From: Folioceros fuciformis
Taxonomy: Eukaryota
Length of the DNA: 61,233 nt
Assembly: GCA_049999805.1 (NCBI GenBank)
Contig: JBNGIO010006382.1
Coordinates: forward strand, 1 to 61,233
Reading direction: 5' to 3'
The notes beneath the pieces are model-generated. The model was not told the DNA's origin. It did not search any database and was given only the letters and a program-made list of their open reading frames with translations. The translations under genes were made by a program, and so were the position numbers. Shown piece after piece: positions 1,462 through 60,157 of the stretch. The first letter of the stretch is position 1, and each line of letters begins with the position of its first letter.

Positions 1462-4400
1462 TTACGCCAGGGCCTCCTTCGCCTTGGCCACAACGTTTTC
1501 GGCGGTGAGGCCGAATTCCTTGTACAGGATACCGATGGGTGCACTGGCACCGAAGTGGTCCAGACCGATGATTTTCCCCTTGGAGCCCACGTACCTCTCC
1601 CATCCAAAGGTAGAACCCGCCTCGATGGACACTCTGGCGGTCACGGATGCGGGGAAGACGCTCTCCTTATACTCTGCACTCTGCTTCTCGAAAAGTTCCC
1701 AGGAGGGGAAGGAGACCACTCTCACAGCCTTGCCCTCGTCCCTCAGGATCTTGGCGGCCTTCTCGGCAATTTCAACCTCGGAACCTGTGCCGATGAGAAT
1801 GACGTCGGGCTTGTTACCGGTGGAGTTGTCGCTCAGGACGTAGGCACCCTTCAACGTGTTCTCGATGGACGACCCTGCAAGGTTGGGCAGCTTTTGCCTA
1901 GAGAGGGCAATCACGGACGGTGTCTTCCGGTGCAGCACAGCAGCCTTGTAAGATCCTGCAGTCTCGTTTCCGTCCGCTGGCCTGAGCATGAGGATGTTGG
2001 GCATGGCCCTGAAGCTGGCCAGATGCTCGATAGGCTGGTGGGTGGGACCATCCTCTCCCAAACCGATGGAGTCATGGGTCATGACGTAAATCACGCCAGC
2101 CTCGCTCAGGGCAGAGATACGCATGGCGGGCCGCAGATAATCAGTGAAGATGAAGAAGGTCGCGCAATATGGGATGAGTCCGCTGTTGTGGAGCTGAATA
2201 CCGTTGCAGATGGCTCCCATGGCGTGTTCCCTCACACCAAATCGCAGGTTGCGCTCCTCGGGTGTGTCTTTTTGGAAGTCGCCGAACATCTTCATCAAAG
2301 TCATGTTGGATCCAGCCAAGTCAGCACTTCCTCCAAGGAGACCTGGCAGCACCTTCGCAAGTGCGTTCAGATTTGTCTGAGACAGGTTGCGGGTAGCATC
2401 CCCTGGCGTCTCTGGGGTGTAAGTCTGCGATCCACAGTACAAGAACAGAAGGTGAACAAAACCTACAGAAAGAAGAACACGCAGCGGCCTGAGCCCAGAA
2501 TGTAAAAACATGGCAAATAAACTTCCAAAGTACTGCTTGTAGAGTTCCCACAATCTGGACCTAGTGCATGCGTCATTGGATAGATCTTACAGGCAAAGCT
2601 TTCTCCCAGCCCTCTGGAAGCTCTCCGCTGATGAGCTGCTTGAACTCAGCCGCCTCCACAGGGTACTTCTTCTCGTACGCAGCAACAGCAGCCTCCCATT
2701 CTGCCTCGAGAGCAGCACCTTCCTTGATGTGACGGCTCCAGTGGCTACCGCAAGCAGCACACAATAAGCACAACTACCGGTAGAATATGCTGCACCCTAC
2801 TTGACAGATTCACACACAAGCACGGACCAAATGATGGCCTTGGCGTACCTCTTCACATCCTCAGGAACGAAGAAGGGCTCGTATGGCCAGCCCAGGTTCT
2901 TGCGTGTTGCGTCAACCTCCTTAGCACCAAGAGCTGATCCATGAACGCTGTAGGAGTTCGCCTTGTTGGGAGAACCAAATCCAATGATAGTGGTAACCTG
3001 CAAGAAAAGCCAAAGATGAAGGTCAAGATCCCAAACACAGTGCGGACGACAACAGACTGACACAACATACTGCGGGCTATGAAAGGCAACAGTCTCAAAC
3101 AACTACGGCTATTTTTTGTTTGAGTCTGCTCCTGCGATTGCTGTTCTGCGACCAGAACGAGATCCCAAGTCATGAAACGTACCTTGATAAAAACAGGCTT
3201 ATCCTTGATGGTCTTAGCCTCAGCGATAGCAGCCCGGATAGCATCATAGTCAGTGTTTCCGTTTTGCACCCAGATAACATGCCAACCCAGAGCCCTGAAG
3301 CGGTCATCCACACTCTCGGTGAAGGCAATCTTAGTGTCTCCGTCGATGGAGATGTGGTTGTCATCGTACAGAGCGATCAGTTTGTTCAGTCCCCAGTGAC
3401 CCGCAAGAGATGCAGCCTCATTCGAGATACCTTCCATGTTGCATCCATCTCCAAGGATACAGTACCTGCAGAGGTTGAGACCGGTAAGCACACAGGAGGC
3501 CGGTGACAACCAATCAAAAAAGGAAAAAAACGACATGCATGACACTTGACACTTACGTGTAGTGGTCGACAACCTTGGCATCAGGCTTATTGTAACGGGC
3601 AGCAAGGTGTGCTTCAGCCAGAGCTAGACCCACGGCATTTGCAATTCCCTGCCCCAAAGGACCTGCCACGACATAAGAGAGTGTCAACCACATGGATAGA
3701 GCATGCATGGCGTGGTGGCACGACAACTGGTCATCCCAGAGAGCGATTTGTTACCAGTAGTGACCTCGACACCGGGAGTCTCAAAATTCTCCGGGTGGCC
3801 AGGGGTCCTGCTCTTCCACTGACGGAATTGCTTCAGATCCTCCTCCTGAAAGCAGGATGATTTAGTCCGACATGCATGCAACATCCCCTCCCACCAAAGA
3901 CCAAAGGACGGAGTTGCCAGGCGATATGAGGAGACAAGACATACAAGCATACCTTGACACTGTCGTATCCGGCAAGGTGGAGCAGGGCGTACTGAAGCAT
4001 GCATCCGTGGCCAGCGGACAGCACAAACCGATCCCTGTTGAACCAGTAGGGGTTCTTAGGGTTGTAGCGCATGATTTCGTCGAAGAGAATGTGTCCCATG
4101 GGAGCACAGCCCATGGGCAGCCCGGGGTGCCCAGAATTCGCCTTCTCCACGGCATCTATGGCCAGGAAGCGGATGGTGTTGATGGATTTCTCCACTAACG
4201 CTACGTCCGTCTTCTCCAGAGTCTCGACGGCCGCAGCGGCCCGGACAGGTGCCGCCCTCTGCAGCTTCCCGGCAGACGCATTCTGCACGGGGGAGGCGGA
4301 AACGGCACGCTGCCCCTTGGACGCAAGCCTCAGCCCGGAGAATGTGCCCACAGGGAAGGCCTGCGCGGCCACCCGGTCCAACCCCTGGGCGGACGCAGCC

Positions 4401-6020: not shown

Positions 6021-8338
6021 CTACCCTTCACATTTCATTTTGGTGCCCAGATGATATAGCATTGCGTATATGTCCTCACTGTCGGAGTGGCTTGTGTCCC
6101 CCACCAGAAAAGTGTGCACCAGTCCATCCATGTCTGTCCACCAGCTCTGGCCTGGCTGCTTCCATGCTCCGATTTCTTTCCTCCTCGCTTGCACCTGCTG
6201 TGCCTGTTGCCACATCTGGGCACTTGCGAATACGTTTGACATCATCACATATGCTGTTGCATCGTTCTTGTTCAGGGTCACTGCTTCTCTAAAAGCATGG
6301 CGCCCAACCTCTATGTTGCTCCACTTTCGACAAGCACCCAACAGATTGTGCCAGGCTGCAGCATCAGGGATGACAGGCATTTTCCGTGCCAAAGCTAGTG
6401 CCTCCTCCAGTTGGCCTGCACGACCGAGCAGATCCACCATGCATGTGTAGTGCTCAGCCGTAGGGGAAATGCCATATTGCTTGGTCATTCTCTCAAACCA
6501 CTCCCTCCCTTGTTCCTTTAGACCCGAGTGACTGCATACTATCAGCACACTGAGGAATGTCACGCCGTCTGGATGTACGCCATCCTCCCCGATTCTGTGA
6601 AACAAGTCAAAGACCTGCTCTTTGTTCCCTTGCCGAGTGTAGCCTGCAATAAGTGCATTCCATGCAACAACGGCTCTTCCAGGCAATGCCTCAAACACCT
6701 GCTGTGCGTCACGCATGCTTCCACACTTTGCATACATGTTGATCAAACTGACAGCTACAAGCACATCGTCGGCTTGAAGCCCCTGTTCTTCAATCTCTGC
6801 ATGAAGCTGCCTTCCAAGATGCAGCGCTGCCACGCTTGCACATGCCTGTAGGAGGCACACATATGTCACAGAATTCGGTGCAACCATGCCCTCCTTTGTC
6901 ATCGCCCTGTGTAGACGAAGTGCTTCGTGCCCCATGCCTTGCTGGGAATACGCTGCTATCATCACATTCCACGTAATCACGTTTTTCTGTCTAAGTCTGT
7001 CAAACACAACCTGTGCATCATCTAAGCTGCCTATGCTTGCATATGCTGCAATCATAACATTCCACGCGACCAAATCTTTCTGGGTAAGCCTGTCAAACGT
7101 TCTTTGAGCGTCTTCCAAGCTGCCACACTTTGCATACATATTTACTAAAGCATGCCTATGAGCCCATCTGCCTCAAGCCCTCGTTCTCTGATCTGTGCAT
7201 GCAGCTGCTTTCCAGTCTCTAAACCACGGGTGCCCACACCTGACCATGCTTGCAAGAGGCACACGAATGTCACTGAGTTGGGTACGGTGAGTCCTCCTTC
7301 CTGCATATTACGGTAAAGTTGAAGGGCTTCCCGACCCATGCCCTGCTGGGATTATCCTGAGATGAGAGCCGTCCAGGTGACCACATCTTTGTTACTCAAT
7401 CCTTGAAACACTCTTTGAGCGTCTTCCAGGCTGCCACACTTTGCATACATGTCCACCAAGCAGTTACAAACAAACAGGCCAGGCGCAACTCCACTGACCA
7501 ACACGTCAGCATGTACCTGCTCCCCAGTTTCCAAGTCTGTGCCCCTTGCACAAGCCTGAAGAGCTGACACAAACACACGGCCATCTGGTTTTACACCTGA
7601 CCTGCGCAGGTTATGATATAGTTGTATTGCCACCTTATCTTGTCCATGTTTGACATGTGCTGAGATTATGGAAGACCACATGAAGGCATCTGGTTCAGCA
7701 ACCAAGGTGAACAAATCCATCGCTTCCTGCAATCTGCCATGAAAAGCATACATTCGCAGGATGTGGTTGCAGAGGAAAGTGTCCGTGTCATAGCCCTTTC
7801 TCACGGTGAGAGCATGGACCCGGCGGCCCCAAACCAAATCCTTCTGAATGATACATTTCTTCACGACAGCATAGAAGAGAGACTTGGAAATACGGCAATC
7901 TGTCTGAACCAAAACGCCCATAGCCTCCACAGCTTCGTTGAGATGCTCCAGCTGACATAGCTTGTTCACCGTTTCAGCGATGACTTCCCTCTCGTACTTT
8001 GCAGGTCTTCGAGTGTCATCAGTATCACTCATCAAGTTCCGCTTGATTGCAGGGGTACTACGACCCATCGTCATATCGGCACGACCCGGCAGAGCTTCTA
8101 TCCTGCTGGAGCTCCTCCTAGAGCTGCTGTTGGTGTAAGGATATCTCTTCGATGAGTGCACGGAAGCTGTTGCTACAAGCGGCCCTGTCGCCTTGTGTGT
8201 GAAAGACGCGCAACGGTCCGAGCAGGGACACTTCCCAGAAGCATGATCTGAACTTTTAGAGTCAAGTCTGAACGGAAAACGCACCTCTAGTACGTTAACA
8301 GCTGGGCCAGTTGCACAAATCAAATTGCCCACGTCCAT
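6021..8338 (-). pseudogene. PLS-class PPR (E/E+, SWW type), disrupted
   Basis: Three ORF pieces form one PPR array. An in-frame TAA at 7352-7354 (ISG*SQQGM, Tyr expected) and a 1-nt deletion near 7150 (IG[N]ALVNMYAK) interrupt it. C-terminus reads KQPGQSWWTDMDGLVHTFLVGD. Confidence 0.8.
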
Positions 8339-8440
8339 TTCCTGCAGCAGAGCTTTCCTGCTCCCGGAATCTCGGTGCAGGCATTGTGAACGTCACATGC
8401 GCCTGCTCTTTGTTGGATCGGAATCACCGCCAGGGCGTCG

Positions 8441-11400
8441 ATGTCAGTAGAGCTACTGTGGCACAAGTTATTTTACGACCCCCGGCAGTGGTGGGACAAT
8501 CGGAGGGACAAGGCACCTTCGTGGTCTTCATAACCCACCGATTCTAGTCAAATGTGTTGACAAGGAAACTGTGTTTCCCTTGACTGACTCGGATTCTGTG
8601 CATGCAGAGAAGCCCCCGCCATCCTGACTTCAGGCACAAGACGACCAAGGAGCTCCTCTGGGCAAACAGCCCATCTAATCCTGCGTGGGTGGAGTCTCAG
8701 TTAGCCATTCTCGATTCCGAATTCCAAATTGCGGATGGAGGTCCTCATGGATTTGCATTTCCTTGCACCAAAGCGGATGAGAGGTAGTCGGCTTCTGTTG
8801 TCAGCACATCTGGTTGTAAAATTATATTCAGGTTGATATTTCCGACTCACTGGTTGGCGAGTGCAGGCCACAGATTTCGCGTGGCATTGAGAGACTATGC
8901 AAGGAGGGACAGCTGGACAAGGCCATCGAGGCCTTGGTCCTGCTGGATCAGCAAGGCAGACCGCCATCTCCTTTCATCTACAAGATTATCTTGCAGGCTT
9001 GTATGAAGAAGAAGTCCCTTGGTGTGGCCAGGAGAATACAAGCTCATTTGGAAAACCATGGGCTCGAGGCAAATGCATTTCTAAGCGAACTTGTGGTTAC
9101 CACACTGGTTCACTGTGGAGGTCTTGCTGATGGTCTCCAGTTGTTTGGGAGGCTCTCTCACACAACAGCATTTTCTTGGACGGCCATCATTTCAGGGTAT
9201 AGCAATGCTGGACAGTACCGGCAAGCATTGTCAAGTTATAAGCAGATGCTTCTGGCAGGGGTGCAGCCTGATAAGTATACGATTGTCAGTTTACTCAAAA
9301 CATGTAGTATGCTACGAGACCTGGAAGAGGGCAAGCGCATTCACTCTGATGTTAAGAGACTTGGCTTTCAGTCCGATGTCGTTGTGGGTAGCATACTGGT
9401 CACCATGTATGCAAAATCTGGGAGCATTGTGGAGGCGCGGAGGGTTTTTGACAGCTTGCCCAGACACGATCCAGTGCTGTGGAATGCAATGCTTGCAGCG
9501 TATGTGCAGCATGGCCAAGGTGAAAGGATCTTGCAGCTTTATGGACAAATGCATGAGGCAGGAGTCAGGCCTGATGCCCGCACATTTGTCAGTGCTCTCC
9601 AAGCATGTGGCATTCTTGCCGAAAAGGAGGAAAGCCGACTGGAAAACGGCCAAAATGTCAAAGTGGTGTCACTGCAAATGGGGCGAAAGCTGCATGCCGA
9701 GGCTGTTGAAATGGGGTTTGGATCTCACGTGTTTGTTGGTAACGCTTCGGTTACTATGTTTGCAAAGTGTGGCAGCACTAACGATGCCAGACACGTGTTC
9801 GACACGTTGGTACAGAAAGATGTGGTGTCCTGGAATGCGCTGATTGCAGCATATGCCCATCAGAACCTTGGAAATGAGGCCTTGAACATGTATGCAGAAA
9901 TGTATAAAGAAGGTGTCAGGCCAGATGCCCGGACGCTTGTTGGTGCTCTTCAAGCATGTGGTATCATAGCAGAACAGGAGGACAGTGGACACCTTGATGG
10001 GCACTATGTCAAATTGAACTCACTCCAGCAGGGCAAGAAACTTCATGCTGAAGCTGCTCGACTGGGTTGTGGAACAGATGTGTTTGTTTGTAGCGCTTTG
10101 GTCAGTATCTACACAAAGTGCGGGAGTACCAAGGATGCAAAGCTTGTCTTTGATGGATTGTTGTACCGAGATGTAGTGTCCTGGACGGCTATGATTGGAG
10201 GATATATTCAGCGAGGCAAAGGAGACATGGCCTTAGAGCTCTATGCTCAAATGCAAGAGGAAGGTGTGAGTCCGGATGCATGGATATTTGCCAGTGCTGC
10301 CCAAGCATGCTCTATGCTTGCAGAGAAGGTGGAAACTACGGACTTTTATGGTCAACAAGTCAAACTGAATCCTCTGCAGAAGGGGAAGGAAATACATGCT
10401 GCAGCTGCTAGGAGAGGTCTTGATTCAGACGTGTATGTCAGTAATACTTTGATAAGCATGTACGCAAGGTGTGGGAGCATCAAAGATGCTGAACACGTGT
10501 TCTGCACATTGTCCCAGCCCAACATCGTTTCATGGAATGCAATGCTTGCAGGGTATGCTCAGCAGGGGGAAGGGCAGAAGGCCCTGCACCTTTATTCAAA
10601 AATTCAGGAGGATGGCGTGAGGCTGAATGCTCGGACTCTTGTCAGCGCTCTTGATGCTTGTGGCACCCTTGCAGAATTGGAGGACAGTAGACTCCTGGAC
10701 GGGCAGAATATCAAAATGGAGTCGATGCAAAAGGGCAAAAGGATCTTTGCGGATGTTATCCGGCTGGGTTACAGGTCAGACAAGTTTGTCTCTTGCGCTC
10801 TGATCAGTATGTACCTTAAGTGTGGGAGCTTATTGGATGCCCAACAGGTGTTTGACGCCTTGTCGGAGCCTGATGTAATGGTGTGGAATGCAATGCTTAC
10901 AGGGTATGCACAGCACGGCCAAGGAGAGACATGCCTGCAGATGTACAGGGAAATGCTAGAAAAAGGCATTGGTCCAGATGATCGGACCTTTGTGAGTGCT
11001 CTGCAAGCATGTGGGACCCTTGCAGAGGAAGAGGAGTGTTCAGTTGCACATGGGCAGCATGTGAAAGCTGAAGCTCTTCGGAAGGGCAGGGAAATACATG
11101 CAGAAGCAGCTAGGCTTGGCTATGACTCGGACATGTTTGTTGGGAGTACTTTGGTTAGCATGTATGCAAAATGTGGGAGTGTGCAAAATGCACGTCCTGT
11201 ATTCGACGGATTGTTCCGTCGGGATGCGGTTTCATGGACAGCTATGATTGGAGGGTACGCCAAGCAGGACCAAGGAGACAAGGCCTTGCAGATGTTCGCT
11301 GAAATGCAACTGGAGGGCATGCAAGCGGAAAACTCCACCTTCCTTTGCGTCCTAGAAGCATGCAGCACCACAGGAGCCTTGGATAGGTGCAGGCAAATCC

Positions 11401-12173
11401 ATGCGCAAATTCTGGAGGCAGGGTTTCATTGCAGCCATTTGGTGGTGAACAGTCTGATACATGCCTATGGTAAATGTGGAAGCATGGTGGATGCGCAGCA
11501 CGTATTTCAGTCCCTCCCTAACCCGAGTGTGGTGTCATGGACGGCTCTCATTGCTGGTCATGCTCGCCAAGGAGATTGTGAGACCAGTATCCGGTTGTAC
11601 GAAGCCATGCTCCTGGCAGGTGTGAAGCCAGATGAAGTCACATTCTTAGCAATCCTGTCAGCATGTAGTCATTCCGGCATGGTGGACAGAGGCCTTGCGT
11701 ACTTCGACAGCATGCACAGAGTGCACGGCATTTCCCCTGAAGTGGAGCATTTTGCCTGCGTGATTGATCTTGTCGGCCGTGCTGGACTCCTTAGCGAGGC
11801 AGAGGGCCTGCTGTCAAGAATGCCAATGCAACCGAAGCTGCCTGTATGGATGTCATTTCTGGGAGCATGCCGGACGCATGGTGACGTCGTGATGGCAATC
11901 CGGGCTTTCGACGGTGCTGTGGCTGTAAAACCAAAAGAAGCTGCTGCCTATGTCTTAATGTCTAATGTCTATGCAAACGCTGGAATGTGGAGGCATGCAA
12001 GGGAAATCGAGGAGTTGAGAGAAAGAGCAGGTGCATGGAAGAAGCCTGGCCGGAGCTGGATTGAGCATGGGGATGAGGTGCACACGTTTGTGGTGGGAGA
12101 CCGCAGCCATGCAGAAACAGCCGCTTTGTATGCTGTCTTGAGCAAGTTGAACCTCGCACTTCAAGGAGTCTGA
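8441..12173 (+). CDS. PLS-class PPR (E/E+, PG box) with N-terminal OSB-like PDF module; join(8441..8512,8608..8783,8867..12173)
   Basis: 1079-aa PPR ORF ending HFACVIDLVGRAG...KKPGRSWIE..VHTF. Two upstream exons (WWDNRRDK / RSPRHPDFRHK..LW..P.WV) join in frame through phase-compatible introns (GC-AG phase 0, then GT-AG phase 2). Confidence 0.85.
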
Positions 12174-18621: not shown

Positions 18622-20802
18622 CTAAGTACAGATGCCTGATGAGTCCAGATATGGCTCATACCCACCTTTCTTAAGTTGGGATAAAAGGTGCCCAAGCATT
18701 ACATATATGTGTTGAATTTCAGGATGATTCTCATCCCCAACTAAGAAACTGTGGACTAGTCCATCCATGTCTGCCCACCAGCTTTTGCCTGGATCCTTCC
18801 AGGCCCCAATCCCCTCTCGTCGTACGTGAAGCTTCTCTGCCTGCTCCCACATCTGGGAACCAGTGTAAATGTTTCTCATCAACACATATGCTGCGGCATC
18901 TTTGTTGTTAAGCTTCACTGCCTCATCAAAAGCATGACGTCCAATGTCCACGTTGCTCCACTTTCGACAAGCATTCAGTAGAGTGTGCCACATTGTAGCA
19001 TCAGGAGGTACAGGCATTGTGCTTATTAAAGCTAGTGCCTCGTCCAGGTGGCCTGCACGACCCAGGAGATCCACCATGCATGTGTAATGGTCAGCCGTCG
19101 GAGTGATGCCATACCATCTGCTCATTGACTCAAAGAGCTCTCGCCCCTTGCTCACTAAACCGGTATGGCTGCAGACTGTTAGCACACTAAGGAGAGTCAT
19201 GCCATCTGGTTGGATGCCACTCTCTCGCATTCTGAGAACCAAGTTGAAGACCTCATCACTGTCTCCTTGACGGCTGTATCCTGCAATCAATGCACTCCAG
19301 CTGACAACATCTTTGTTTGGTAAGGCATCAAACACCTGCTGTGCATCAACCATACTCCCCGCCTTTGCATACATGCTTATCAGGCTGTTGGCTACAGCTG
19401 CATCAGATTGAAGCCCCTGGTCTTCTATCTGTGCATGAAGCTGCCTTCCCACATGCAAAGCTGACACACCTGCACATGCCTGAAGAAGGCAGACAAATGT
19501 AACAACATTGGGTGCAACACTGCCGTCTACTCTCATTGCCCTGTAAAGTTGAAGGGCTTCCTGCCCCATGCCATGCTGGGAATACCCTGCGATCATGGCA
19601 CTCCAAGTCACCACGTTCTTTTGACCAAGTCCGTCAAAGATGCCTCGAGCATCCTCGAGGCTGCCACACTTGGCATACATGCTCACCAAACTGCTGGCTA
19701 CAAACACATTACCTTGGAGTCCTAGTACACTGATTTGTGCATGGAGCTGTCTCCCCATCTCCAAAGCTGGGTTCCCCACACTCGCACATGCCTGCAAGAG
19801 GCACACAAATGTTACAGAATCCAGCGCAATGATGCCTTCTTCTTGCATAGCTCTGTAGACAAAAAGGGCCCTGTGCCCCATGTTCTGCTGGGCATATCCT
19901 GCTATCATGACGCTCCAAGTCACCAAATCCTTTTCATGAAGCCCGTCAAACACTCTTTGAGCGTCTTCCAAGCTTCCACATTTAGCGTACATGTCAACCA
20001 AGCAACTGGAGACAAATAAATCGCCCTCAACGCCACTTGCCAACACATCAGCGTGCACCTGCTGCCCAGAATTCAAGTCCTCTACCCCGGCACAGGCCTG
20101 AAGAGCTGCCACAAACACATGCCCGTCCGGCTTCACACTTGACCTGCGCATTCGATGATATAGCTCTACGGCCTGTTTGTCTTCCCCGTGTTTCACGTGA
20201 GCAGAGATTATAGCAGACCAAGTGAACGCATCCGGTTTGGCAACCACTACAAACAAACCCATCGCGTCGTGCAAACTGGCAAGAGAAGCATACATTCGCA
20301 ACATGTGGTTGCAAAGGAAAGTATCAGACTCATACCCCCTCTTCACCGTGAGAGCATGGACACGCCGACCCATAACCAAATCCTTCTTAACCATACATTC
20401 TTTAAGGACAGAGTAGAAGAGAGAGCGGGATACACCACAGCCAGTTTGCACCAGAACGCCAAGGGCCTCAACAGCCTCAGTGTACTGACCTTGCTGACAT
20501 AGTTCATTCACGATCTCAGCAGATACGTCCATTTCATGTCCAGCAGGCGGACCCCGTTGCACATCCAGAGCAAAGCAATCCGATGCCACCTGGGTGGGCC
20601 ACCGTGTGACTGAATTGCGATGGACCAGGCAGCCATGATTGGCATAAGCGTGCACTGAACCTATCGAAGGTTCAAGCCTGGACCCAATGCCCAACTCCAG
20701 ACCTGAAGATGGAGTACTGCGCAAATGACTCTTACCTAGTCCGTTTGCCCCGCTACACACAATATCGGCACCAAGTTTTAAGCAAGCATGGCTCACGGCC
20801 AT
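18622..20802 (-). CDS. PLS-class PPR (E/E+, SWW type), single exon
   Basis: Intact ~726-aa ORF with P-L-S repeats, HYTCMVDLLGRAG and KDPGKSWWADMDGLVHSF. It ends just after GYEP, so no DYW catalytic core is present. Confidence 0.92.
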   Translation of the reverse strand: MAVSHACLKLGADIVCSGANGLGKSHLRSTPSSGLELGIGSRLEPSIGSVHAYANHGCLVHRNSVTRWPTQVASDCFALDVQRGPPAGHEMDVSAEIVNELCQQGQYTEAVEALGVLVQTGCGVSRSLFYSVLKECMVKKDLVMGRRVHALTVKRGYESDTFLCNHMLRMYASLASLHDAMGLFVVVAKPDAFTWSAIISAHVKHGEDKQAVELYHRMRRSSVKPDGHVFVAALQACAGVEDLNSGQQVHADVLASGVEGDLFVSSCLVDMYAKCGSLEDAQRVFDGLHEKDLVTWSVMIAGYAQQNMGHRALFVYRAMQEEGIIALDSVTFVCLLQACASVGNPALEMGRQLHAQISVLGLQGNVFVASSLVSMYAKCGSLEDARGIFDGLGQKNVVTWSAMIAGYSQHGMGQEALQLYRAMRVDGSVAPNVVTFVCLLQACAGVSALHVGRQLHAQIEDQGLQSDAAVANSLISMYAKAGSMVDAQQVFDALPNKDVVSWSALIAGYSRQGDSDEVFNLVLRMRESGIQPDGMTLLSVLTVCSHTGLVSKGRELFESMSRWYGITPTADHYTCMVDLLGRAGHLDEALALISTMPVPPDATMWHTLLNACRKWSNVDIGRHAFDEAVKLNNKDAAAYVLMRNIYTGSQMWEQAEKLHVRREGIGAWKDPGKSWWADMDGLVHSFLVGDENHPEIQHIYVMLGHLLSQLKKGGYEPYLDSSGICT

Positions 20803-22479
20803 GTACAATCAATTACACTGGTACATTAAACAATCACAGGGGATGTGACACTGGTCAGTGCCATATACAGCCCGCCATCCTCATCCGTGTACATATATTT
20901 GGGTAGAGTCTGCAACTTGCTTCCTTAAAGATAAAGAGAACGACAAGCAAGATGCTTGGTTCCGTAATCACAGAGAATTTGTTTACACAGATTTGCAAAA
21001 GTTTACGAAGAGAACGCATTTTATCCAAGAAGCAGTAATTCAGCCTGAAGGCCCAAAACAGTCGCTGAAGCACTTGGTATGGGTTAGAGAGAGTTTAGTG
21101 ATCTGCAGCGACTGAGCGCTCTCTGGTTGATGTCAGACAACCTTCACGATAGGTGACAGTCCACCTACTTTGATCCATCGTTGGGCATAACGTGACCCGC
21201 CCAAGTCAAGGGGGAATTGGCGTGATGGGGGAGTGGGAGGTGTTGAATCACTGTTTCGCCTATCAGGCAGTGACAACATATGCGGATATGTTCCACCGTG
21301 TCACAATCTTCTGAAGGCTTCTATGCTTGAGCTGCCAATGTCAACAGGACCCGTTCATGCACCAGGCATGCCACTCCGTCATTACATACCTACCCTTACT
21401 TCTCAGAGATGCACATTCCAGACTCCGGAACTCCTGTTCTCTTGGAATGCTGAAAGCATTCCACTCCTGCTCTGCGTCTTCAGAAAGTAAGTGGCTGCTC
21501 AGCAAGCCTTGACCCTGCGTACTGTGTCTGTGGCTTTTGATTACGAAAATGGTTCATATGGCAGTGGATGTATCGGACTTGATTTTCGCGGAGGAGAGCA
21601 TCACTCTCAATGGCAGAGTCACCTCCCCTTCAGACTCCTCCAAGACCCTGTTCCTCGCTGGTCATGGTATGCATAGAATTGTCCATGAAATGTATGAACT
21701 GAAAAGGTCTGCATCGTCAGTAACTCATTCAACGCATCCGGAGTGTCATCCTCGCAGGCTTTCAACTGAAGGTGAAAGACAACGTGGAAGCGAAAGTTGC
21801 CCGCTTCGCAATCTACCTGGAGCGAGAAGTCACATCCCATCGTCAAGATTGAAAGGGGAAGTCCGCTGAGGAGCTCAGTCGAGACCCTGCCTTCTTTACA
21901 GCTTTGATCAAAGGTTAGTGAACGTGATATGACTTACATGCCAGCCAAATTGCTTGAAACTGAATGTCTCCTCCATGATTTTACAACCCCCGTCGAGAAA
22001 TTCGTAAAAGTGTTCTTGCTTGTGGGTCCACTCACGGGGGCTCAATACGGAGCCCAGGTTGAGGCCGTTGTCAAAGAGCGCCTCATCAAAGATAAACAAG
22101 CTTGGTGAGGCAGAAGAGAGGGGACTGAAGGAGCTCGCTCACTTCTTCCAATCCATCAACCAGTTGGAGTCAACAGTGTTCTACACAGTGTCCTCCCCTT
22201 CGATTGTGAAGCTCACGGTGAGACAGGAGGAGCTGAGACTGATGCCACAGACCTTGCAGGTACCCAGATTGCTGCTCCTGACACAAGCTGGATGTAATGT
22301 GGTGTCACAGGTGCACGTGGATGGCACAGAGGTGGTGCACATCATCTCGGGCGAGACCACTGTGTCGGCTCTGCTGGACACAGTTTTGGGCCAGAACACC
22401 CTCAGTCCTTCCACAGTTGCTTCCCTTGTCCAGGGCATCAGTTCTTGGCTTCACTAGCCAACAGACATGAATATAAGAG

Positions 22480-24510
22480 TCACATGCCCAGCCTAGAGGA
22501 TTCAGCTTCGACCCATGAATTCCAGCTTGTAGTACTCCCAACATACTTTTCGTCCTTAGAGTATGTGTTTCTGATAGAAAAGGCTGACGCTGCTGGATGC
22601 TGCCATTTAGCATCAGCCGAGAAGGCCTCAAAGACCTGCTCAAAAGTGATGCCATCAGGTGCTATCCAGGCACCACTCATCTGGTTCACCCAGTAAAGGG
22701 CACCTTGACTATTACCCACCTTGGCACATGCTGTGATGAGAGCATTGTAAGTTATCAGAGATGGTTTTAATCCAGCTTCCTGCATCTCACTGACCACTTT
22801 CAGACAATCCTCATACAGCCCTGAATTCCCGTGAACACATATCATGATGGTGTAGGCTACATCGTTCGGCTTCACTCCTACCTTCTTCATATGTGCCCAC
22901 AGTCGGACTGCGTTTTCGTACTGACCTGCTTTCTCGAAAGTGCAGAGAAGAGCACCATAGGATAGCACATCTGGTTTCTCCCCGTGTTGTATCATTTTTT
23001 GGAACAGACTCACTGCCGCAGAGGTTGCATTAGCCTTGGCACAGGCGATGAGAGCCGCATTCCATGCAAATCTCCCAGGGTCAAGTCCCTTTTCTAGCAT
23101 TCTGTCAAGTAATGTTAAAGACCACTTCCAAATTCTCCTCCTTCTGGCCGCATTCAGAAGGATGCGGAAGTGTGAGACCACTATTTCCCGTGTAGTTCTA
23201 TCTGGTTCAGGTCCCTGCTCAACCATTTGTTCAAAAACCTGTAGGGCTGCCCACCACTTCTTCCCCTTGCCTAAAGCCTTGATCACATGATTGCACAGGG
23301 AAATAGTGAGCGGATAACCTTTGGTACGGAGGACCAGGTACAAACGCTTCACCAGAACATGATCCAACTCCCTAGTGCCGCATCTCCACAAGAGATTGAC
23401 ACAGGTTGCCGTGTCTAGCTCTACAGATGCAGCTTCCATGCCTGCAAACAGCTTGCCGATTTCTGAAGCCTCGATTCCTTCTGCGAGCCATATCCAAATT
23501 CTTTCTGAACACAAATCCTTCATGAAAATCTCCAACTGCTGCCATTGTCTCTCCATCCTTAGTCCAACAGTCCTGCTGTCTACTTGCCCACTCTGCAATG
23601 CGTGATATGATTCAGGATGGGTCAGCTGGCTCTGCATTTGCTCATTCCTCAGATCCACGAACATTTCAAGGGCGGTGACAGCATCCCCAACTTTTGCTAG
23701 AATTCGGAACAGCATTCTGTAGGTTACGAAGGTAGGTTTTATTCCTGCCAGCTTCAAAGCTATGAACACATTGAGCGCTTCATGAAGGTTGCCCTGCTCC
23801 TCCTGCATCTTGATTACAGTATTGAAGGTAACCACATCCGGAACAACTTTCCTCTTCTCAATCTCTGAAATAACCTGGTCCATGACGTTATATCTCCGAT
23901 TCGCCTTCAAGGCCCCCAACAAGCTGTTATAGATGTACACGTTGGGTCGATCCTCCTCATTCGCGACAGGTCTGGCAATCATCCAATTCACGATCGCATG
24001 TGCTGCACAAGGATGCCCTTCCACACCCAATTTCTGAATCACGGAGGACAGTACCGGAAGAGATACCTCCAAATCCCCCAAAATGGCACCAACGTGCGAG
24101 GCATCAGTAGCTCCTCTCAACGCCCATGTGATGGCTCGTTCCAACGGCGTCGTGGCTCGACTGTTTTCGCACTTACGCTCTGTTTCAGAAGCGATGCGGC
24201 CCAGAAGAGCTTCGTGGTCTTTCCTCTTCATCCGTGCCGTCTCCTATTGCACCCATCTAAGACAATCAGCACAAAGCACATCCAAAGCAAGGAGGTTACA
24301 ACATTGCCAACAACATTGATGAAAGGTTACCTCCTGGGCAACACTTCTGGATGCAAACGTGCGCTGCATACTGTATCTCCCGGAGCACCATTGCCTTCTA
24401 TCTAGATTTCCAGCCTCGTGTCTAGCACTCCTAGGCCTCCGTGACATTTCCCACGGATAGCTGGCAGGCATTGCAGCAACGAACTCAGAGGCGGCAAAGA
24501 AACACGCCAT
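22480..24510 (-). CDS. LPE1: P-class PPR, LPE1-like (plastid); exons 24510..24331 and 24243..22480
   Basis: PNVYIYNSLLGA, CNHVIKALGKGKKWWAALQVFE and VVSHFRILLNAARRRRIWKW match my recollection of the LPE1 family. A phase-0 GT-AG intron joins an N-terminal exon. Confidence 0.8.
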
Positions 24511-35028: not shown

Positions 35029-37885
35029 ATGGCTTCAAATGCGACGAGCATGGCTCTGCCCTCAACTGGTGCTGAGAAAGTAAAGTTCACAGTGTTTGTT
35101 AGAGGACATCAGTGGAGTTCTGCTAGGCATATCCACGAAACACTGCAGGAGTTTGCAGAAGTGATCCAGGTACTTCGAGTCCGCAATTTCACGTGATGGT
35201 CTAAGTGCAAGCTCGATCGTGTCGACGACTCTTCTGACTTTTAGTGGCACCGGCGTTGGCAGAGGAATGCCCGAAGGCTAAACTTTATTGACGAGGGCGA
35301 CAACATACAGCGCCTTCAGCTTGCAAGGACTGATGGATCGGATCCAGAGGAGCTTGACGTTGATGCAACTCTTGAGGATGTCATAATTTGCATGGGAAGC
35401 AAGCAGTTGGTTGCAATAATCAACAGCCCGAGAGGGGCTCCAGCCGCATGCAGTGCATGTCCTGAAGGCGGGAAACCTTGTACGTCACCTATATTGGAGT
35501 GTGTTGTGCCCAAACTACTGGAGAATGACAATGTGTCTGCTCCCATTTCGAAGTTACCACAGATGCAAAGTGAAAACCTTGAGATGCCTTCTCTTGGACC
35601 TGCTAAGTCCTCCTCCTACATTTTAAAGCATCGGAGTGGTCCGTTTAAATCAGCTTGTGATCCAGGAGGGAGGGGGTTAAAGATAACCATCCCGTCCACA
35701 GAGCACAATGCTCCAGTCTTCCATGATGACAGAGGAATTCCTTTCGGCCAGGATTATAGCAATGGAGACAGGCATGCTGCAGTTCTTCCTCCACCTATGT
35801 CCTCCCGCTCGGCTAACTTAAATGCTAGTTTGATTTGCGGCAATGGTGGTGGTATACCAACAGGTCTAATGAACTCTGCTTCCACCCCCAGCCCAGCTGA
35901 GCTTGCTCACTTCCTAGTGAGGGGCTCGTCCAGCATCCCAGCAAACCGGGTTAGCAACGGGAACACTCTCAATGGTTCACATCTGCACGCTCATGGAAAC
36001 GGAGCCATGGCTGCAACTCATTCCGGTTTCCAGTCCTTTGCCCCAACCATGATGAACAGATTGCCACCCATGCCCACCTCCAATAACCCCCTCCCTTGTC
36101 AAGCTCCGGCGACACCCAACATTGCCCTCTTAGCCCAGTTCCTTGCATCACAGTTGAGAGCCTTCATTCCTGTGAACGGCATGGGGAGTCACCATAATAA
36201 CCCAGCACTCACTTCGTGTCCTGCAAATGCTGTGGGCAGCATGAAGGGCTATGCTCGTGCTACTACTGATTTGGGGCCAAACCTGCGGAAAGGTCCAACC
36301 GATCACCTGACCACGTGTTGCAAAGTAGAAGGCGCAGTGAAGGAGTCACCTAGGTCGGCCCCAGGTAACCCTAAAGCTTCTGTCAGCGAGTCTCATGACA
36401 AGGATGAATCATCCTCTTCAGCCAATGTAAATAATACTGCTGCTCCATCCAGCGATGGTATAGAGAGTGAGCTGCAACATACAAATGGGCACCGACGTTC
36501 AGAGATGATTTTTTTGGTGAACAGGAGAAGCAAAACGGTAGGTCTTCCTGATGTGCAAGTCTCCAGCATACACACCCGCTATTATGGGTTACATACTTGG
36601 CCACTGCAAGGCATCCCTCCCTGTACCTGTACAACATCACCCTGGGTTGGGCTACAACCACTTACGCGACTATTCTATACAAAACTTATATACGCTTATG
36701 CTACTCTTGTAAAGGAGAAAGAGATTTTCCATCTTTGCAGGGCGTTGGGACACACCATCTGAGGATGTCCGACTTATCTGCATTTTTTCATCTTAGCGTT
36801 GTCGATGCAGCCAAGAAGCTTGGCGTGTCTCAAACCACACTTAAGAAGGCCTGTAGGAAGTTTGGGCTCAAGCGTTGGCCGGGCCGGAAGGTAATGAACC
36901 TAACATGCTGCACCCTGTCCTCGCAACAATAAGCAGAAGCATCAAGCCCGAAACCTGACTTCACACTGGACTTCCAGGTGCGGAGTTTGGAGAGCACGAT
37001 ACATGGGCTAGAGCACACAATAGCCGTAGGTCATGGAGCTGGCATGGAGGAACTGACAGAGGCTTACATGAGGTCGGAGGTAACAAAGCTCCAGCAAGAA
37101 ATGGATCAGCTTGTACATGGGACTCCGATCTCTCAGGTACGTATCGTATCTCTTCGAAGCAGACAGTACACACGGTTGCTTTCAACAGTCCTTTACTCTC
37201 GCTCTTTCCATTCACACCACATAACTCGCAACTTGTGCAGCATTCACCGGTTGCGAGGACGGCAGATTTGTACAAAAGACTGTACTCTCGGGGTTGGAGA
37301 TCAAAATATCACAGTCCCTGTAACCGATTTGACCTAGACCTCAACAGAGATAGTAGAGACACTGACCAGGCCTACTCTAAAGCCGGTGACGAGACTAAGC
37401 CTGCCATGAAGGGGGCGAACGGATGTCATGAGCCTCGGAAGGAACAGGTGCCTGCTGACCTTAAAGACGACTCTCACAGTCAGACTAGTCGAGAGAGCCA
37501 AGACATTACGCACAAGGAACAGGGTAATGGAAATATGAAGAGGAGCTCAAACATGGACCTGGACACCACCATAAAGGAGGAGAGCACCAAGGAAGACCTG
37601 GAACCTGCCAAGTTAGTCAATAGAGACACGTACATGGCAGAGGACGCCAAAAGGCACATGCCAGCAGAGGAGGCCGAGGCAACTCCTGCCAAGCACAGGA
37701 GAGTGGACTCTGCCAATCACATCCATGCAGAACAGATCCTTGACATGGAAACACAAAGTGCAAATAACAATCACGTAGCACACGCAGACAGACCTTTTGC
37801 TCCAGAGAGAAGCCCCAAGCGACCAAAGCGGGATTGCAGTGACCTCAGCGATGCAGCTCTACATGAGTTGAGTGTACCATTGTGA
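35029..37885 (+). CDS. RWP-RK transcription factor, ~789 aa; join(35029..35169,35263..36537,36741..36890,36978..37136,37241..37885)
   Basis: FHLSVVDAAKKLGVSQTTLKKACRKFGLKRWPGRK|VRSL. All four introns are GT-AG, phase 0 and frame-consistent. Confidence 0.85.
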
Positions 37886-42273: not shown

Positions 42274-42373
42274 NNNNNNNNNNNNNNNNNNNNNNNNNNN
42301 NNNNNNNNNNNNNNNNNNNNNNNNNNNNNNNNNNNNNNNNNNNNNNNNNNNNNNNNNNNNNNNNNNNNNNNNN
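42274..42373. other. Assembly gap (100 N)
   Basis: Run of N. Confidence 1.
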
Positions 42374-42747
42374 CTGTAATGTTGAAGATGATGACGAGGT
42401 TTGTTGTAGGCAGAGGGGAGTTTGCCGCCTCTTGATTTTGCGCTGCGTGAAGCGAAAGAAAATTTCTTGTTTACTCGAGGTGCGTCGCGGAGGGCTGAAG
42501 AAGGTGGTGCCGAATGCGTGCTGGACGTGGATATGTACCGGTGACGGCTGTCTTTGGAGGAATGGGAGGGCTGAGATTATGGCCGCTTGCTTTGGACCCA
42601 CGGAGGGGCGGGAATTCTGGCTCCTTCTTTGTTTTGATGGAGTTCTTGTGGAACAAGACGCAAGAAGTATAATTCATCACGTTTGATTGAAGAGCTCGGC
42701 GAGCGAGAATTGAGTGCAGCTTTGAATCTCTCTTTGCCGCTTCAAAA

Positions 42748-44793
42748 ATGGCGGCTAGCGTCTTGATCAGACGGCAGATGGTCCGGGCAGCATCCTTCAT
42801 GTTGTTGATGGTGCTGGGAGCAGTTTTGTACCCGATTCTGGGTTGGAATAGTGACAAGAGTAGCGGCTCCACCCTAGGCCTGGGGAGGTGGCCACTCATC
42901 TCCTTCACTTCTTTTCAAACCGATTCGGCTGTTCTTTCTGCGGAGTCCACTGCACCTCCACAAGAAAGACCGACGGATTCGCTCATTGTTGCTAAGCATG
43001 CTGCAGCGGAAGAGTGGTTTGCAGCTCCCAGCCCGTCAGCCAGTTTGCTTCATCGGGATGCCATGGCAAAGGCGACGTCAGCAGTCGACGAGCTGTCGAT
43101 GGAGGTCTCAAAATTTGCGAGTCTTCCCGCGGTCTTGGAAGAAGAGGTGGCGGATCATAATGGTGTCCACAGCTTCGTCCAAGAAGCCAATGACAGAGGC
43201 GTCGATGAGTTCGCCTACCGGCCTGGAGAAGATACGACAAGTGGCAGAGATAATGCTACTCAGATGGTAACGTCCTATCCTAGGGAAGCTGACACCAAGG
43301 GTGAAGACGCTGTGGAGTCGCAAAATGAAGGTGGAGTGGTCGAGATTGGAGCTTCATCGGATAGAATGAAGGTCGACAGAGAAGCCACGGCCTTGCAAAC
43401 GGGAAGACCTGGGAGGGCGGACAACGTTGTCTCTTACGACCAACCCTTGACAACGGAAGCAGACGTCCTCGGGGGTGTCGACAAGATTCCCTCTTTGGAA
43501 CAAGTAGGAAAGGTTGAGGAGCAACAACACTTGAGGTTGTCGGCCAGTTCGAATACGAGTAACCAGGATCAGACACAAACTACGGCGACTTCTGCCGACA
43601 AGTTGCCTGATTGGCGCAGCGTAGCTGATAACCAACTCAGGGAAGCAAAACTGGCGATAGAAGATCCCTCTTACTGTGTGGAAGGAAGTTATCCGCTCTA
43701 CCGGCCTGTGTACCACAACGTCACCTTTTTCAAGAAGAGTTACGAGCTCATGGAAAAGACCTTCAAGATCTTCGTGTATAAGGAAGGTGCAAGACCGCTA
43801 GTGCACACGGGACCTCTCACAGGCATCTACGCCTCGGAGGGCCAGTTCATTGACAGGGTAACTAGGGGCAGCAAATTTGTAACCAAGAATCCAGTGAAGG
43901 CTCACATGTACTTCTTGCCTTACAGTGTGGCACAGATGGTAACCCATCCTAAGATGTGTATAAGAGACAGCATGCGGCCCTTGGCAACCTTCATCAAGGA
44001 CTATGTGGACGACCTCGCAGTGAAGTATCCCTACTGGAATCTGACAGAAGGACGAGACCATTTCTTCGTAGCATGCCACGACTGGGGCCCCGCAACTGCC
44101 AGGGATCATCCAACTCTACGGCACAACGCGGTCAAAGCGGTGTGCAATGCAGACTTGACAGAAGAGTTCTTGCCCTACAAAGACGTTTCGTTACCGGAAG
44201 TCTACATTCACAAGCGCAGGAAGGGATCCGATCCCAAGCTTGGAGGCAACAGGCCTAGTCACCGTCCTTATCTCGCATTTTTCGCGGGTCAGATGCATGG
44301 CAGAGTTCGCCCTGTTCTCCTGGAGCATTGGAAGGACAAGGATCCAGACATGAGGATATACGAGGTTCTTCCCCGCGCCGTTGCCAAGAAGGTATCGTAT
44401 GTTCAGCACATGAAGTCCAGCAAATTTTGTATTTGCGCCATGGGATACGAGGTGAACAGCCCGCGTCTTGTGGAGGCCATCTCTTATGACTGCGTGCCAG
44501 TTATTATAGCGGACAACTTTTCGCTTCCGTTCGCTGATGTTCTGGACTGGAGTTCCTTCTCCATCACGGTGGATGAAGAGGACATTCCCAACCTCAAGCA
44601 GATTCTGCTGGAAGTCACAGACTTGCAGTACAGAACTTTTCAAAGCCGGCTCCAGCATGTCAGGCAACACTTCATGTGGCACCCCAAGTCTCCTCAGCGA
44701 TTTGATGCCTTTCATATGGTCCTGCACTCCGTATGGATGCGGAAATTGCGGCAGATTGAGGTTGAACGGCCTCAACACGTTTCTACCACTTAA
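42748..44793 (+). CDS. Exostosin-family glycosyltransferase GT47, single exon, type II membrane
   Basis: N-terminal TM helix, SYELMEK.FKIFVY.EG, GIYASEG.F, DHFFVACHDW, FFAGQMHG and SKFCIC..GYEVNSPR.VEAI...CVPVII. Confidence 0.95.
   Translation: MAASVLIRRQMVRAASFMLLMVLGAVLYPILGWNSDKSSGSTLGLGRWPLISFTSFQTDSAVLSAESTAPPQERPTDSLIVAKHAAAEEWFAAPSPSASLLHRDAMAKATSAVDELSMEVSKFASLPAVLEEEVADHNGVHSFVQEANDRGVDEFAYRPGEDTTSGRDNATQMVTSYPREADTKGEDAVESQNEGGVVEIGASSDRMKVDREATALQTGRPGRADNVVSYDQPLTTEADVLGGVDKIPSLEQVGKVEEQQHLRLSASSNTSNQDQTQTTATSADKLPDWRSVADNQLREAKLAIEDPSYCVEGSYPLYRPVYHNVTFFKKSYELMEKTFKIFVYKEGARPLVHTGPLTGIYASEGQFIDRVTRGSKFVTKNPVKAHMYFLPYSVAQMVTHPKMCIRDSMRPLATFIKDYVDDLAVKYPYWNLTEGRDHFFVACHDWGPATARDHPTLRHNAVKAVCNADLTEEFLPYKDVSLPEVYIHKRRKGSDPKLGGNRPSHRPYLAFFAGQMHGRVRPVLLEHWKDKDPDMRIYEVLPRAVAKKVSYVQHMKSSKFCICAMGYEVNSPRLVEAISYDCVPVIIADNFSLPFADVLDWSSFSITVDEEDIPNLKQILLEVTDLQYRTFQSRLQHVRQHFMWHPKSPQRFDAFHMVLHSVWMRKLRQIEVERPQHVSTT
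43952..43970 (+). other. Tn5 mosaic end / Nextera adapter (probable assembly contaminant)
   Basis: Exact AGATGTGTATAAGAGACAG, translated as (K)MCIRDS. Confidence 0.93.
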
Positions 44794-47912: not shown

Positions 47913-50900
47913 CTAGAGGAACCTGAGGGGTTTGACCTTGCGGGCGAAGGACGTGGGATCTTGGTTCCATTCTCTGACCGAGTTCCGGCCATCCAGGTCG
48001 TCTGCTAGCCGCAAGGCTTGCCGTTGGAGAAGCATGATGACGAACCTCTGGGCTGTGGTTGTTACCCCCGGGAGCAGGTCCCTCAGCAAAGGCATGGCAT
48101 GCTGTGCCACGCCCACCATGTCTGGAGAAGGGTCATGGTCAGTCAGGATTGCTTGCGTACGACTTTCCAGGTTGTAGGTGGTTGGGGGAGATGGAAGATT
48201 ACCGGGAGGACATCTTACCTGTAGAGCTTGTGAGGTTGAGTTGTGGCTCCAGGAGGGACCAGAGCCTGCGTACTGTGTCCAGTGACCTCTGATCCTCGTC
48301 CGACAAACTGGCTACACGATTGAATGCAAGAGGCCACGAGCCTGGAGCCAAGCGTCCTGAGGGAACAGGCAGTCTTAGTCTTGACGCTAGATATTGCCAG
48401 AGTGCTGCCACTGCTTCTCGAGATAAGGCGTCCACCGATCTCACAAGCTTCAAATGACCAGGTGCGTGTTAGAAAGTTTGAAGCGGATGATGCAGTGGAG
48501 TTGGTCTTGGGGACCGTAGAAGTGCTGGAACTTTACCTCGGTGAGAAGAAGTTCTTGTATGTAGCTTCCTTTTGGATCGAAGATGAGCAGAAGTGCTTGT
48601 TTGGTTGTAGGGTCTAAGGGAGTGCTGCGTCTTAGGGAATCAGAAGGATTCCAAGGGGCCATTGACTCACGAAAAGTCTGAAAGCCGTGGGCAATGTCCT
48701 CAACTCTTTGCACGTCCAGTTGATCCTTACCGCTGTAGAGGAAATATTTGAGAGCTTCACGTGCCCTTGGACTGCCAGCAAGGCCATCTTATAAGAGAAG
48801 GATGTACACAATGCGTTCATCAACACAGTCACGACAACCAGACCCTGTATCAGGTACCTGTCATCTGTTATCAGCCTCTTTGATATGTACGGGTAGCATT
48901 CCTCGACTATCGTGTAATCTGGGTCAGCTTCTAGTCCAATGCCCTCGAGGACAGAAAATGCCCTTAATATAAGTGCAAAGTATGGTGGAATGACGAACAC
49001 ATAGTCTTCGGATATCTTCGCAAGATCAACCACAACCTGCCAAGGTCGAGCTTGGAGTTAAGCCTCTCACTCAGCCCGTGCACGTCCTTATGTCATGTCA
49101 GAGCTTCTCGCCTGTACCAATTCAAAGGAAGAGTTTCACGTACCTGTGCAAAATTCACTTTACGAGCTCCTCCACCTTGAACGAGTTGAGTAAGTACTCT
49201 ACTTAGTTGGGGGACAACCGCAAGAGTCTTCGCAGGGTCGACGAGCTCAGGAGGCACAAAGCCTAGCTTGACCAAGTCTTCTGCCACTTTAGCGAAGTCG
49301 TTGTTGACTAGATGAGCTATATAGTCAATCAGGGTGTACCGTTGCTCCTCAGTGATCTGAACACAAGTGACACTACAATTAAAAAAACAAAAGAGATAGT
49401 TGAAAAGAGACCCTCCTTGTTGATGCCCAAGTGCCTGGAGTCCGGTGCAGCAGACTCAAAAGGGCGAGCACCAGACTCCACTTTGAAAGGTCTAGGTACT
49501 AGCTCAGCTGGGATGAAAGAACTCACTTCTGTCATTAAACCAAAATCAAGGACACAGAGGCGACCATCCGGTGTCCTCAACAGATTGCCAGGATGCGGGT
49601 CTGCATGGAGAAAGCCACTCTCCAGCAGCTGGATTAGATAGCAATTCAAGGCAACTGTCACAAGAGGAAGTAGATCTGCTGCTTTGCTCTCTGACAGCTT
49701 CTCCCCTTGTACCCACGCAGACGTCAGTACCTGCGGGCAGCAGACAAATATTTGTTGGGCTCTATCAAATGACGATGAAACTGCAACAATTGCAGTGTTA
49801 GCATGAAGAAAAAAAACTTACGATACCTTCCGAGATGTGTACGGCAGGTAAGCATATGGCACTGTAACATTAGACAGTTCTTTCATATCCTCTGCAAAAC
49901 GTAGGGCATTCTTGGCCTGAAACAAAGTTTTAACATTACAACAAACTTTATGACATCATGCGAATGGATTTATGACAACTCTGGATGCCAGTCCTCGTAT
50001 ACCTCTTGCACATAGTCAAGCTCATCAAAGAACCGTATTGCCCATGTATCAAGTAGGCCAACAAGATCAGATTGAACTATGGGCAGTTTCTGGAGCATGA
50101 AGGAAGTACTCCTTAAAATGAAGAGGTCTTTAGATATTCCTTCAAGAACTCCTGGTCTCTGAACCTTAACTGCCACTGGTTGCCCAGTTTCCTTGAGACG
50201 GGCTTTGTAGACCTGCAAACGGAGAGAAGGGGGCAGTCACTCGTAAGGAAACATCACGTAACATCACGTATTTGCATCAGCAAATAATTTGACTTTGCAG
50301 ACGCAGATCTCTCTGTTACCTGTCCCAAAGAAGCTGCAGCTATGGGTTCCACAGACATGTCCTGAAAGATGTCTTCAGCAGGTTTTCCAAGACCCTCCTG
50401 AATAATGCGTTTGGCTTCATCATTCGGAAAAGGTGGCACCCTGTCTTGAAGTTTCTGCAGCTCCTCTAGATACACAACTGGCACAATATCTGGCCGTATG
50501 CTTAGGGATTGCCCTATCTGCAGGTCACATCAATCTGAATCAGCCTTCAGCTCCCTGCTGTAAATGCGGGAATACTGAAATCCGCCAAATGAATTTGAAG
50601 TGACAGACACACAAAACGAACAGCGTCAGTTTATCCAACCTTAATGGCTGTAGGGCCGAGCCTGGCTATTAAGCTCACAAGTTGTGTAGCTCTCAAGCGT
50701 TCATTGTCCCGGGCCTTGCCCGTCGCAAAGTCAAGGAGTATGCTAGCAGCTAGTGCCGAACTCTGAACGGCTATTTTTGTAGCACGCCACATTACATCGG
50801 TTGGTCTCCGCCGAAAGTAGGCACGAATTGCTTGAGAATCGTACCGCAGAGGCAAGTCTTTGCCCTCAACAAAAGCTCTGTAACCAGATGCGGAAGAAAC

Positions 50901-60100: not shown

Positions 60101-60157
60101 GACACACTCCGACGACGCGACGGAGCCGGCACACGTCTCGAGCCACTCGCAGACAGG

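Follow-up and report, generated by a model that had tools for sequence, protein, structure and literature searches.

A predicted PLS-class PPR gene of Folioceros fuciformis with an N-terminal PDF module of the kind found in OSB proteins

The DNA described here is contig JBNGIO010006382.1 of Folioceros fuciformis (assembly GCA_049999805.1), and the whole stretch of 61,233 nucleotides (nt) that was analysed is referred to as the window. Positions 8441–12173 on its plus strand are predicted to constitute a three-exon nuclear gene for a protein of 1,184 amino acids (aa), consisting of a PDF module, a linker, an array of PLS-class PPR repeats and an E motif. Judged by its sequence the gene appears to be a member of a large and apparently undescribed subfamily of PLS-PPR proteins with one to three PDF modules at the N-terminus, here called the PDF-PPR subfamily, which is a grouping defined in this analysis and not a named family. 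With the gene model, the membership of the subfamily and the mechanism proposed below taken together as one explanation, we consider it probable.

Exon 1 (8441–8512) contains the ATG and, in 24 aa that end with ...WWDNRRDK, the first half of the PDF module, and exon 2 (8608–8783) contains the second half (RSPRHPDFRHK...LW...NPAWV...) followed by the linker, both assigned by translation and profile match. Exon 3 (8867–12173), assigned by translation and Pfam, has a frame of 1,102 codons comprising the PPR array, the E motif, the start of the PG box and the stop codon. Intron 1 (8513–8607, 95 nt) is of the GC-AG type with a weak donor (AAG/GCACCT...TGCAG/AGA) and was placed by the spacing and the gap-free alignment that it gives, and intron 2 (8784–8866, 83 nt) is canonical GT-AG (GAG/GTAGTC...GTGCAG/GCC) and was placed by collinearity with PDF-PPR homologues; all five features are on the plus strand. 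The coordinates and translations of the exons agree with those of the initial annotation, and the joins proposed there run in frame into the PPR open reading frame (ORF) and give a single uninterrupted coding sequence (CDS) of 1,184 codons with one terminal stop, at 12171–12173. Splicing is needed since the frame of exon 1 meets a stop at 8531–8533, and if intron 2 is retained the frame of exon 2 stops at 8785–8787. The large PPR ORF extends from stop to stop over 8820–12173 and, as had been noted earlier, has no ATG at its start, the first methionine being located inside the first repeat. In the spliced product the PDF domain occupies residues 3–62, corresponding to 8447–8512 and 8608–8721. 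An upstream ORF of 17 codons on the same strand (8397–8450, from the ORF listing) overlaps the start codon at 8441, and is relevant only if transcription starts upstream of 8397.

A profile was built from 424 PDF domains, taken solely from proteins without PPR similarity, and scored against the 1,865 stop-to-stop ORFs of at least 20 aa in the six frames of the window. The ORF that holds exon 2 (8584–8784) gave 49.0 bits with an E value of 3.9e-14, the one that holds exon 1 (8390–8530) gave 28.5 bits with an E value of 9.7e-8, and the next-best ORF of the window had an E value of 1.6; the match of both exons is far beyond chance. The profile reaches the two exons independently of each other, which bears out the earlier claim that the module is homologous to the PDF motif of OSB proteins. 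One PDF-like module in all, and none elsewhere, was found in a regular-expression scan of the 61-kb window. Aligned with six PPR-linked modules the peptides of exons 1 and 2 abut with neither gap nor overlap, in support of a module that is split by an intron, and all 15 residues that are nearly invariant in an alignment of 37 PPR-linked and OSB-type modules are kept.

In the opposite direction, a profile of PPR-linked modules alone was searched against a collection of 5.8 billion proteins and gave 568 matches at E ≤ 0.01. Among the 120 matches listed, OSB1, OSB2 or OSB3 is the name given by the source to at least 12, with E values from 1e-34 to 1e-72, and PF00436, the SSB family, is present in 10 of the 120. 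When 1.84 billion cluster representatives were searched with this profile, there were 1,231 matches at E ≤ 1e-3, 559 at E ≤ 1e-10 and 71 at E ≤ 1e-30. Because a profile of PPR-linked modules retrieves proteins named OSB, the N-terminal module of the gene is, by sequence homology, an OSB PDF motif. It has in common with the modules of OSB proteins its length, the 15 nearly invariant residues and a spacing of 8 residues between the WWDNR and PDF blocks, and a profile made from either set retrieves the other, whereas the window gene differs from OSB proteins in having a single N-terminal module with a PPR array behind it and no OB fold. For an OB-fold or SSB-like domain in front of the module, PF00436 had no match on any of the pieces scanned with Pfam, and only two residues precede the module. 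Pfam returned no family for the exon peptides, with a chance match to CTK3_C at E 0.21, and nothing for the whole of the one-module protein P0334; the PDF module is covered by no Pfam model. A word-indexed search with exon 2 alone gave four candidates of which none was scored, because the window reads PDFRHK where most relatives have PDFKHK and few words are common to them, and this was solved by the profile.

The position of intron 1 deserves attention, as an alternative in-frame intron with a GT donor at 8521 and the AG at 8608–8609 would make the stretch from the WWDNR block to the PDF block two residues longer. The distance between these blocks is 8 residues in 239 of 256 PDF domains (83 of the 88 that are PPR-linked and 156 of the 168 others), the remaining ones have 7, 9, 12 or 18, and a distance of 10 is found in none of the 256. 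The product of the GC-donor join scores 78.5 bits with the non-PPR PDF profile and that of the GT-donor join 75.9 bits, and the GC-donor model has one gap fewer in every pairwise alignment. P0138, which is the closest homologue, has ...WWDNRRGKKSPRHPDFRHK... across the place where the junction would fall, and the GC-donor join reproduces its residues there. For these reasons of spacing, bit score, gaps and junction residues the GC-donor join is preferred, and the joins of the initial annotation are those that restore the conserved 8-residue spacing of the family. The GT-donor intron is less likely, with a spacing not found in the 256 domains, an extra gap and a score lower by 2.6 bits; since OSB domains tolerate insertions in the loop between the WWDNR and PDF blocks according to the 2026 OSB survey (PMC13393729), it is less likely and no more than that.

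The first 377 aa of the exon 3 product match the Pfam families PPR_2 (151.8 bits) and PPR (107.3 bits), and the last 424 aa match PPR (133.6 bits) and E_motif (41.7 bits, with a cut-off of 27.3). The E motif (PF20431, residues 327–389 of the translation of 10899–12170) is located at 11877–12065 on the plus strand. The PDF module should sit, as had been suggested, in front of a PLS-class PPR protein with an E motif, the latter scoring above its Pfam cut-off. The ORF stops 30 residues past the PG-box histidine, shortly after a ...WIE...HTF..GD... box. No DYW deaminase was found: PF14432 did not match, and neither an HxE(K/R)xA nor a CxxCH signature is present in any frame of the window. The description of the product as an RNA-editing factor therefore holds for the PPR array with its E motif and fails for a deaminase, which is missing both in the ORF and elsewhere in the window; editing factor is a class assignment made by analogy, and any C-to-U deamination by the protein would need a deaminase supplied in trans. 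Like PLS-class PPR proteins of the E and E+ types, which are organelle editing specificity factors, the predicted protein has PPR repeats and an E motif and ends soon after the start of the PG box, but it differs from them by the N-terminal PDF module and the lack of a visible targeting peptide.

The repeat array (8868–12173, plus strand) has regular acidic insertions of about 12–18 residues after ...AC..LAE.EE..., which are common to P0138 and the Pteridium transcripts P0140 and P0357, unlike the Diphasiastrum relatives. In an AlphaFold2 model of P0357 the acidic insertion is of low confidence, with a predicted local distance difference test (pLDDT) value of about 63 at residues 361–370. The E-motif PPR ORFs at 6021–7172 (minus strand) and 12057–12173 (plus strand) both stop about 25–30 residues after the ...HTF..GD... 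box.

PDF motifs had been stated not to occur on PPR proteins, with a unique chimera as the implication, which is wrong: among the 120 matches listed for the PPR-linked profile 76 are PPR proteins with one to three N-terminal PDF modules, and the other 44 listed are not. Of these 76, 73 are 'hypothetical proteins' of Diphasiastrum complanatum and the remaining three are P0197 of Adiantum capillus-veneris, the Logan protein P0138, and P0140. By their source names P0140 and P0357 are from Pteridium aquilinum, both being Trinity transcripts with one continuous ORF each, and P0360 is from the liverwort Riccia sorocarpa. The profile searches on proteins, which had been put forward as a check of the proposed fusion, thus gave significant PDF matches that include PDF-PPR architectures of a lycophyte, ferns and a liverwort. 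In a search with residues 1–260 of the PPR body as query, WWDN...PDF(K/R)HK preceded the repeats in 15 of the 120 matches listed, and in 14 of the 16 Diphasiastrum complanatum entries among them. The best named PPR matches listed are from Diphasiastrum and Adiantum with 39–43% identity, and Logan contigs reach up to 57%. Long series of modules are found in some proteins, with 13 matched PDF stretches in P0124 (Kingdonia), 11 in P0126 and 9 in P0125. In P0184 (Coptis) three PDF modules are combined with a kinesin motor, which may result from a merged gene model.

Among 78 classified PDF-PPR proteins two modules are the commonest number (48 proteins), ahead of one (21) and three (nine). The modules are N-terminal in all but one of 94 PDF-PPR homologues, with a median of 9.5 residues between the end of the last module and the first PPR match. 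The exception, P0013, has PDF modules at ~98–207 and ~690–743, and is probably a merged gene model of two tandem PDF-PPR genes. A DYW deaminase signature is found in 30 of the 94; P0032 matches the Pfam family DYW_deaminase with 140.8 bits and has E and E+ motifs in addition, and P0138, P0140 and P0357 end in an E motif and are without the DYW domain. Residues 3–160 of the spliced product align with residues 1–152 of P0032 (E 5.6e-33), and the product is collinear through the boundary between PDF and PPR with P0032, P0006, P0010, P0140 and P0138, with E values from 1e-30 to 6e-33. The stretch after the PDF module together with the first PPR helices is collinear with eight PDF-PPR homologues, and among single modules copy 1 of P0138 is the nearest, with 64% identity over 55 columns. 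The order of the window gene, with PDF directly N-terminal to a PLS-type PPR array, is thus the same as in the Diphasiastrum proteins P0032, P0006 and P0285 and in P0197, P0140, P0357 and P0360. Among PDF-PPR proteins as a whole, however, two or three modules are the rule (57 of the 78 classified), an extension with a median of 88 aa precedes them and about one third end in a DYW deaminase, whereas the window gene is limited to a single module with hardly any extension before it and lacks the DYW domain.

No paper that connects PPR proteins with the PDF motif or domain was found in a full-text search of the literature, with subscription papers and supplementary tables outside its reach. The OSB survey mentioned above retained, by the selection that it describes, only proteins in which an OB fold and a PDF domain occur together (PMC13393729), and neither OSB nor PDF came up in a term search of a kingdom-wide survey of editing factors from 2026 (PMC13386178). 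The combination has probably been missed because there is no Pfam model for PDF and because the OSB survey demanded an OB fold too.

The structure of the module was modelled with AlphaFold2. For the one-module protein P0334, with an alignment of 37 rows, pLDDT is above 90 over residues 21–80, and the elements follow each other as a helix, two short strands, a third short bridge and a long helix. In the model of the Pteridium PDF-PPR protein P0357 the module has pLDDT values of 82–94, and the linker (residues 89–100) from below 50 to about 60. A module of high confidence joined by a linker of low confidence to the first PPR helix suggests an independent domain on a flexible tether, and the PDF module looks in these models like a confidently and independently folded alpha-beta-beta-alpha domain that is flexibly tethered to the PPR array.

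In PPR arrays bound to RNA the N-terminal repeats face the 5' side, which would place the module at the 5' edge of the RNA that is bound. At this position it might add unspecific affinity for RNA or, alternatively, keep the flanking strand unpaired. The likeliest role of the module on PPR proteins, by analogy, would be to bind single-stranded nucleic acid independently of its sequence, on a flexible tether, a suggestion made because the PDF motif of AtOSB1 is sufficient for binding single-stranded DNA (ssDNA) according to a review (PMC6963530). As proposed in the initial annotation, the module might also bind organellar ssDNA in the nucleoid, in a transcription bubble or in an R-loop rather than RNA, and so place the PPR protein at the site of transcription. 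Binding to ssDNA is the only biochemical property reported for PDF motifs in two papers (PMC6963530, PMC13393729), and the PPR-linked modules are like those of OSB proteins in the nearly invariant residues. However, the evidence presented here fits binding to DNA and to RNA alike, the short linker to an RNA-binding array fits binding to the same RNA strand equally well, and the PPR-linked modules have their own part of the PDF tree, weakly supported, and may differ in specificity; a role on ssDNA rather than RNA is unlikely, though a serious candidate.

Several observations weigh against the proposed explanation of the gene as a single-strand binder fused to a PPR protein. Two residues precede the PDF domain, compared to a median of 88 in 94 homologues, so that an organelle-targeting peptide is not visible, and the distance between the start codon at 8441 and the likely start (~8338) of a divergent PPR gene on the minus strand (ORF 7352–8392, with the candidate start near 8338) is only about 100 nt. 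The GC donor of intron 1 (AAG/GCACCT) is off the usual context of such donors, and the alternative GT donor at 8521 is weak as well. Among solved structures none was found by sequence at E ≤ 1 for the PDF module, Foldseek with the PDF model against the PDB gave a best E value of 1.7 and no convincing match, and the best Z score in a VIA-align comparison with 48,161 chains was 4.3, which is within the noise, so that the predicted fold has no solved counterpart to argue a mode of binding from. Finally, with no DYW deaminase the editing role stands by analogy only. Two of these points had been raised as caveats in the initial annotation, and both are real: intron 1 uses a GC donor, and there is no in-frame presequence upstream of 8441 that could constitute a clear transit peptide.

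The short N-terminus, the GC donor in poor context and the missing DYW domain would also be expected if the gene were a decaying or non-functional PDF-PPR duplicate that has lost its presequence and its deaminase and in which the donor of intron 1 has mutated from GT to GC, and its position within a cluster of PPR ORFs is as expected of a recent duplication. This is nevertheless rather improbable, as the reading frame of 1,184 codons is uninterrupted, 15 of the 15 nearly invariant PDF residues are kept, and P0140, P0357 and P0138 likewise have no DYW domain, indicating that the DYW-less form is normal for this branch. Neither is the short N-terminus unique, since 6 of the 94 homologues are annotated with seven residues or fewer before the module. 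A 16-codon ORF from 8152 can be joined in frame (donor 8199, acceptor 8433) and is a candidate for a short presequence; such a mini-exon would, speculatively and judged from its translation, add a short, basic and hydroxyl-rich N-terminus.

Still less probable is that the PDF exons and the PPR ORF do not encode one protein, the former being a stand-alone gene with intron 2 retained and a product of 83 aa ending at 8785–8787, or a relic next to a PPR gene that uses another 5' exon: the weak donor of intron 1, the stop directly after exon 2 in its own frame and the existence of short one-module proteins (P0355 of 124 aa, P0352 of 133 aa and P0351 of 153 aa) speak for it, but the PPR ORF has no start codon of its own, intron 2 is canonical and in frame, the collinear alignment with eight homologues runs from the post-PDF stretch into the first PPR helices, and some short PDF proteins are fragments, such as P0310 which ends in the start of a PPR repeat.

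A tree was built from 132 PDF domains, with 57 columns. One of its subtrees, of 42 rows, contains every one of the 34 PPR-linked modules, and the label PPR-linked needs 4 changes on the tree compared to 30.2 in shuffles, none of 500 shuffles being as low. The support of the branches is weak, with values of 80–89 in the Shimodaira–Hasegawa-like approximate likelihood ratio test (SH-aLRT), and the fragment P0310 is one of the rows counted as 'non-PPR' in that subtree. The sequences are compatible with one or a few old PDF-PPR fusions. A wider and rather improbable proposal, when judged jointly with its proposed roles, is that PDF-PPR is an ancient architecture with one or a few origins which may have been kept in non-seed land plants as a built-in single-strand-binding accessory; its spread outside seed plants is based on the members from a liverwort, a lycophyte and ferns. 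The module would then keep the RNA open on the 5' side of the recognition site or, alternatively, dock the factor on nucleoid ssDNA and so favour co-transcriptional editing and other processing, and in seed plants separate helper proteins would do its job. P0360, a PDF-PPR protein annotated in Riccia sorocarpa, belongs to a complex thalloid liverwort, a group in which no RNA editing has been reported according to PMC5295000. Provided that the record is neither contamination nor mis-assembled, a PDF-PPR protein in such a lineage would indicate a role of the module beyond editing.

Further PPR ORFs, none of them with a PDF module, form a cluster in the window at 6021–8392, 18622–20808 and 22480–24243, all on the minus strand. 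E motifs are found in the ORFs 6021–7172 and 18622–20808, while that at 22480–24243 has PPR matches only, and the ORFs 7352–8392 and 6021–7172 look like two pieces of one gene. Three other genes are each contained in one uninterrupted ORF: a full-length trehalase (58238–60190, minus strand; Pfam 4–512 of 512), a protein with a transketolase-type pyrimidine-binding domain and a C-terminal domain (1462–2586, minus strand), and a GT47 exostosin (42691–44793, plus strand). The trehalase region has about 60% G+C, compared to about 50% elsewhere. The ORFs 35245–36762 (plus strand) and 50631–52157 (minus strand), of about 505 aa each, have no Pfam match at E ≤ 1e-5. At 1061–1160 and 42274–42373 the assembly has gaps, each a run of exactly 100 N.

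PPR editing factors are intensively studied and are engineered as programmable RNA tools, and their N-termini are usually viewed as mere targeting peptides. Single PPR-DYW proteins are able to edit in E. coli, as described in PMC6397227, and the contribution of the module is therefore directly testable by deletion. A confidently folded relative of an ssDNA-binding motif in front of dozens of PLS-PPR proteins, complete PPR-E-DYW enzymes among them, points to an unrecognised accessory function of these proteins, one that would concern the capture of RNA or their sub-organellar placement.

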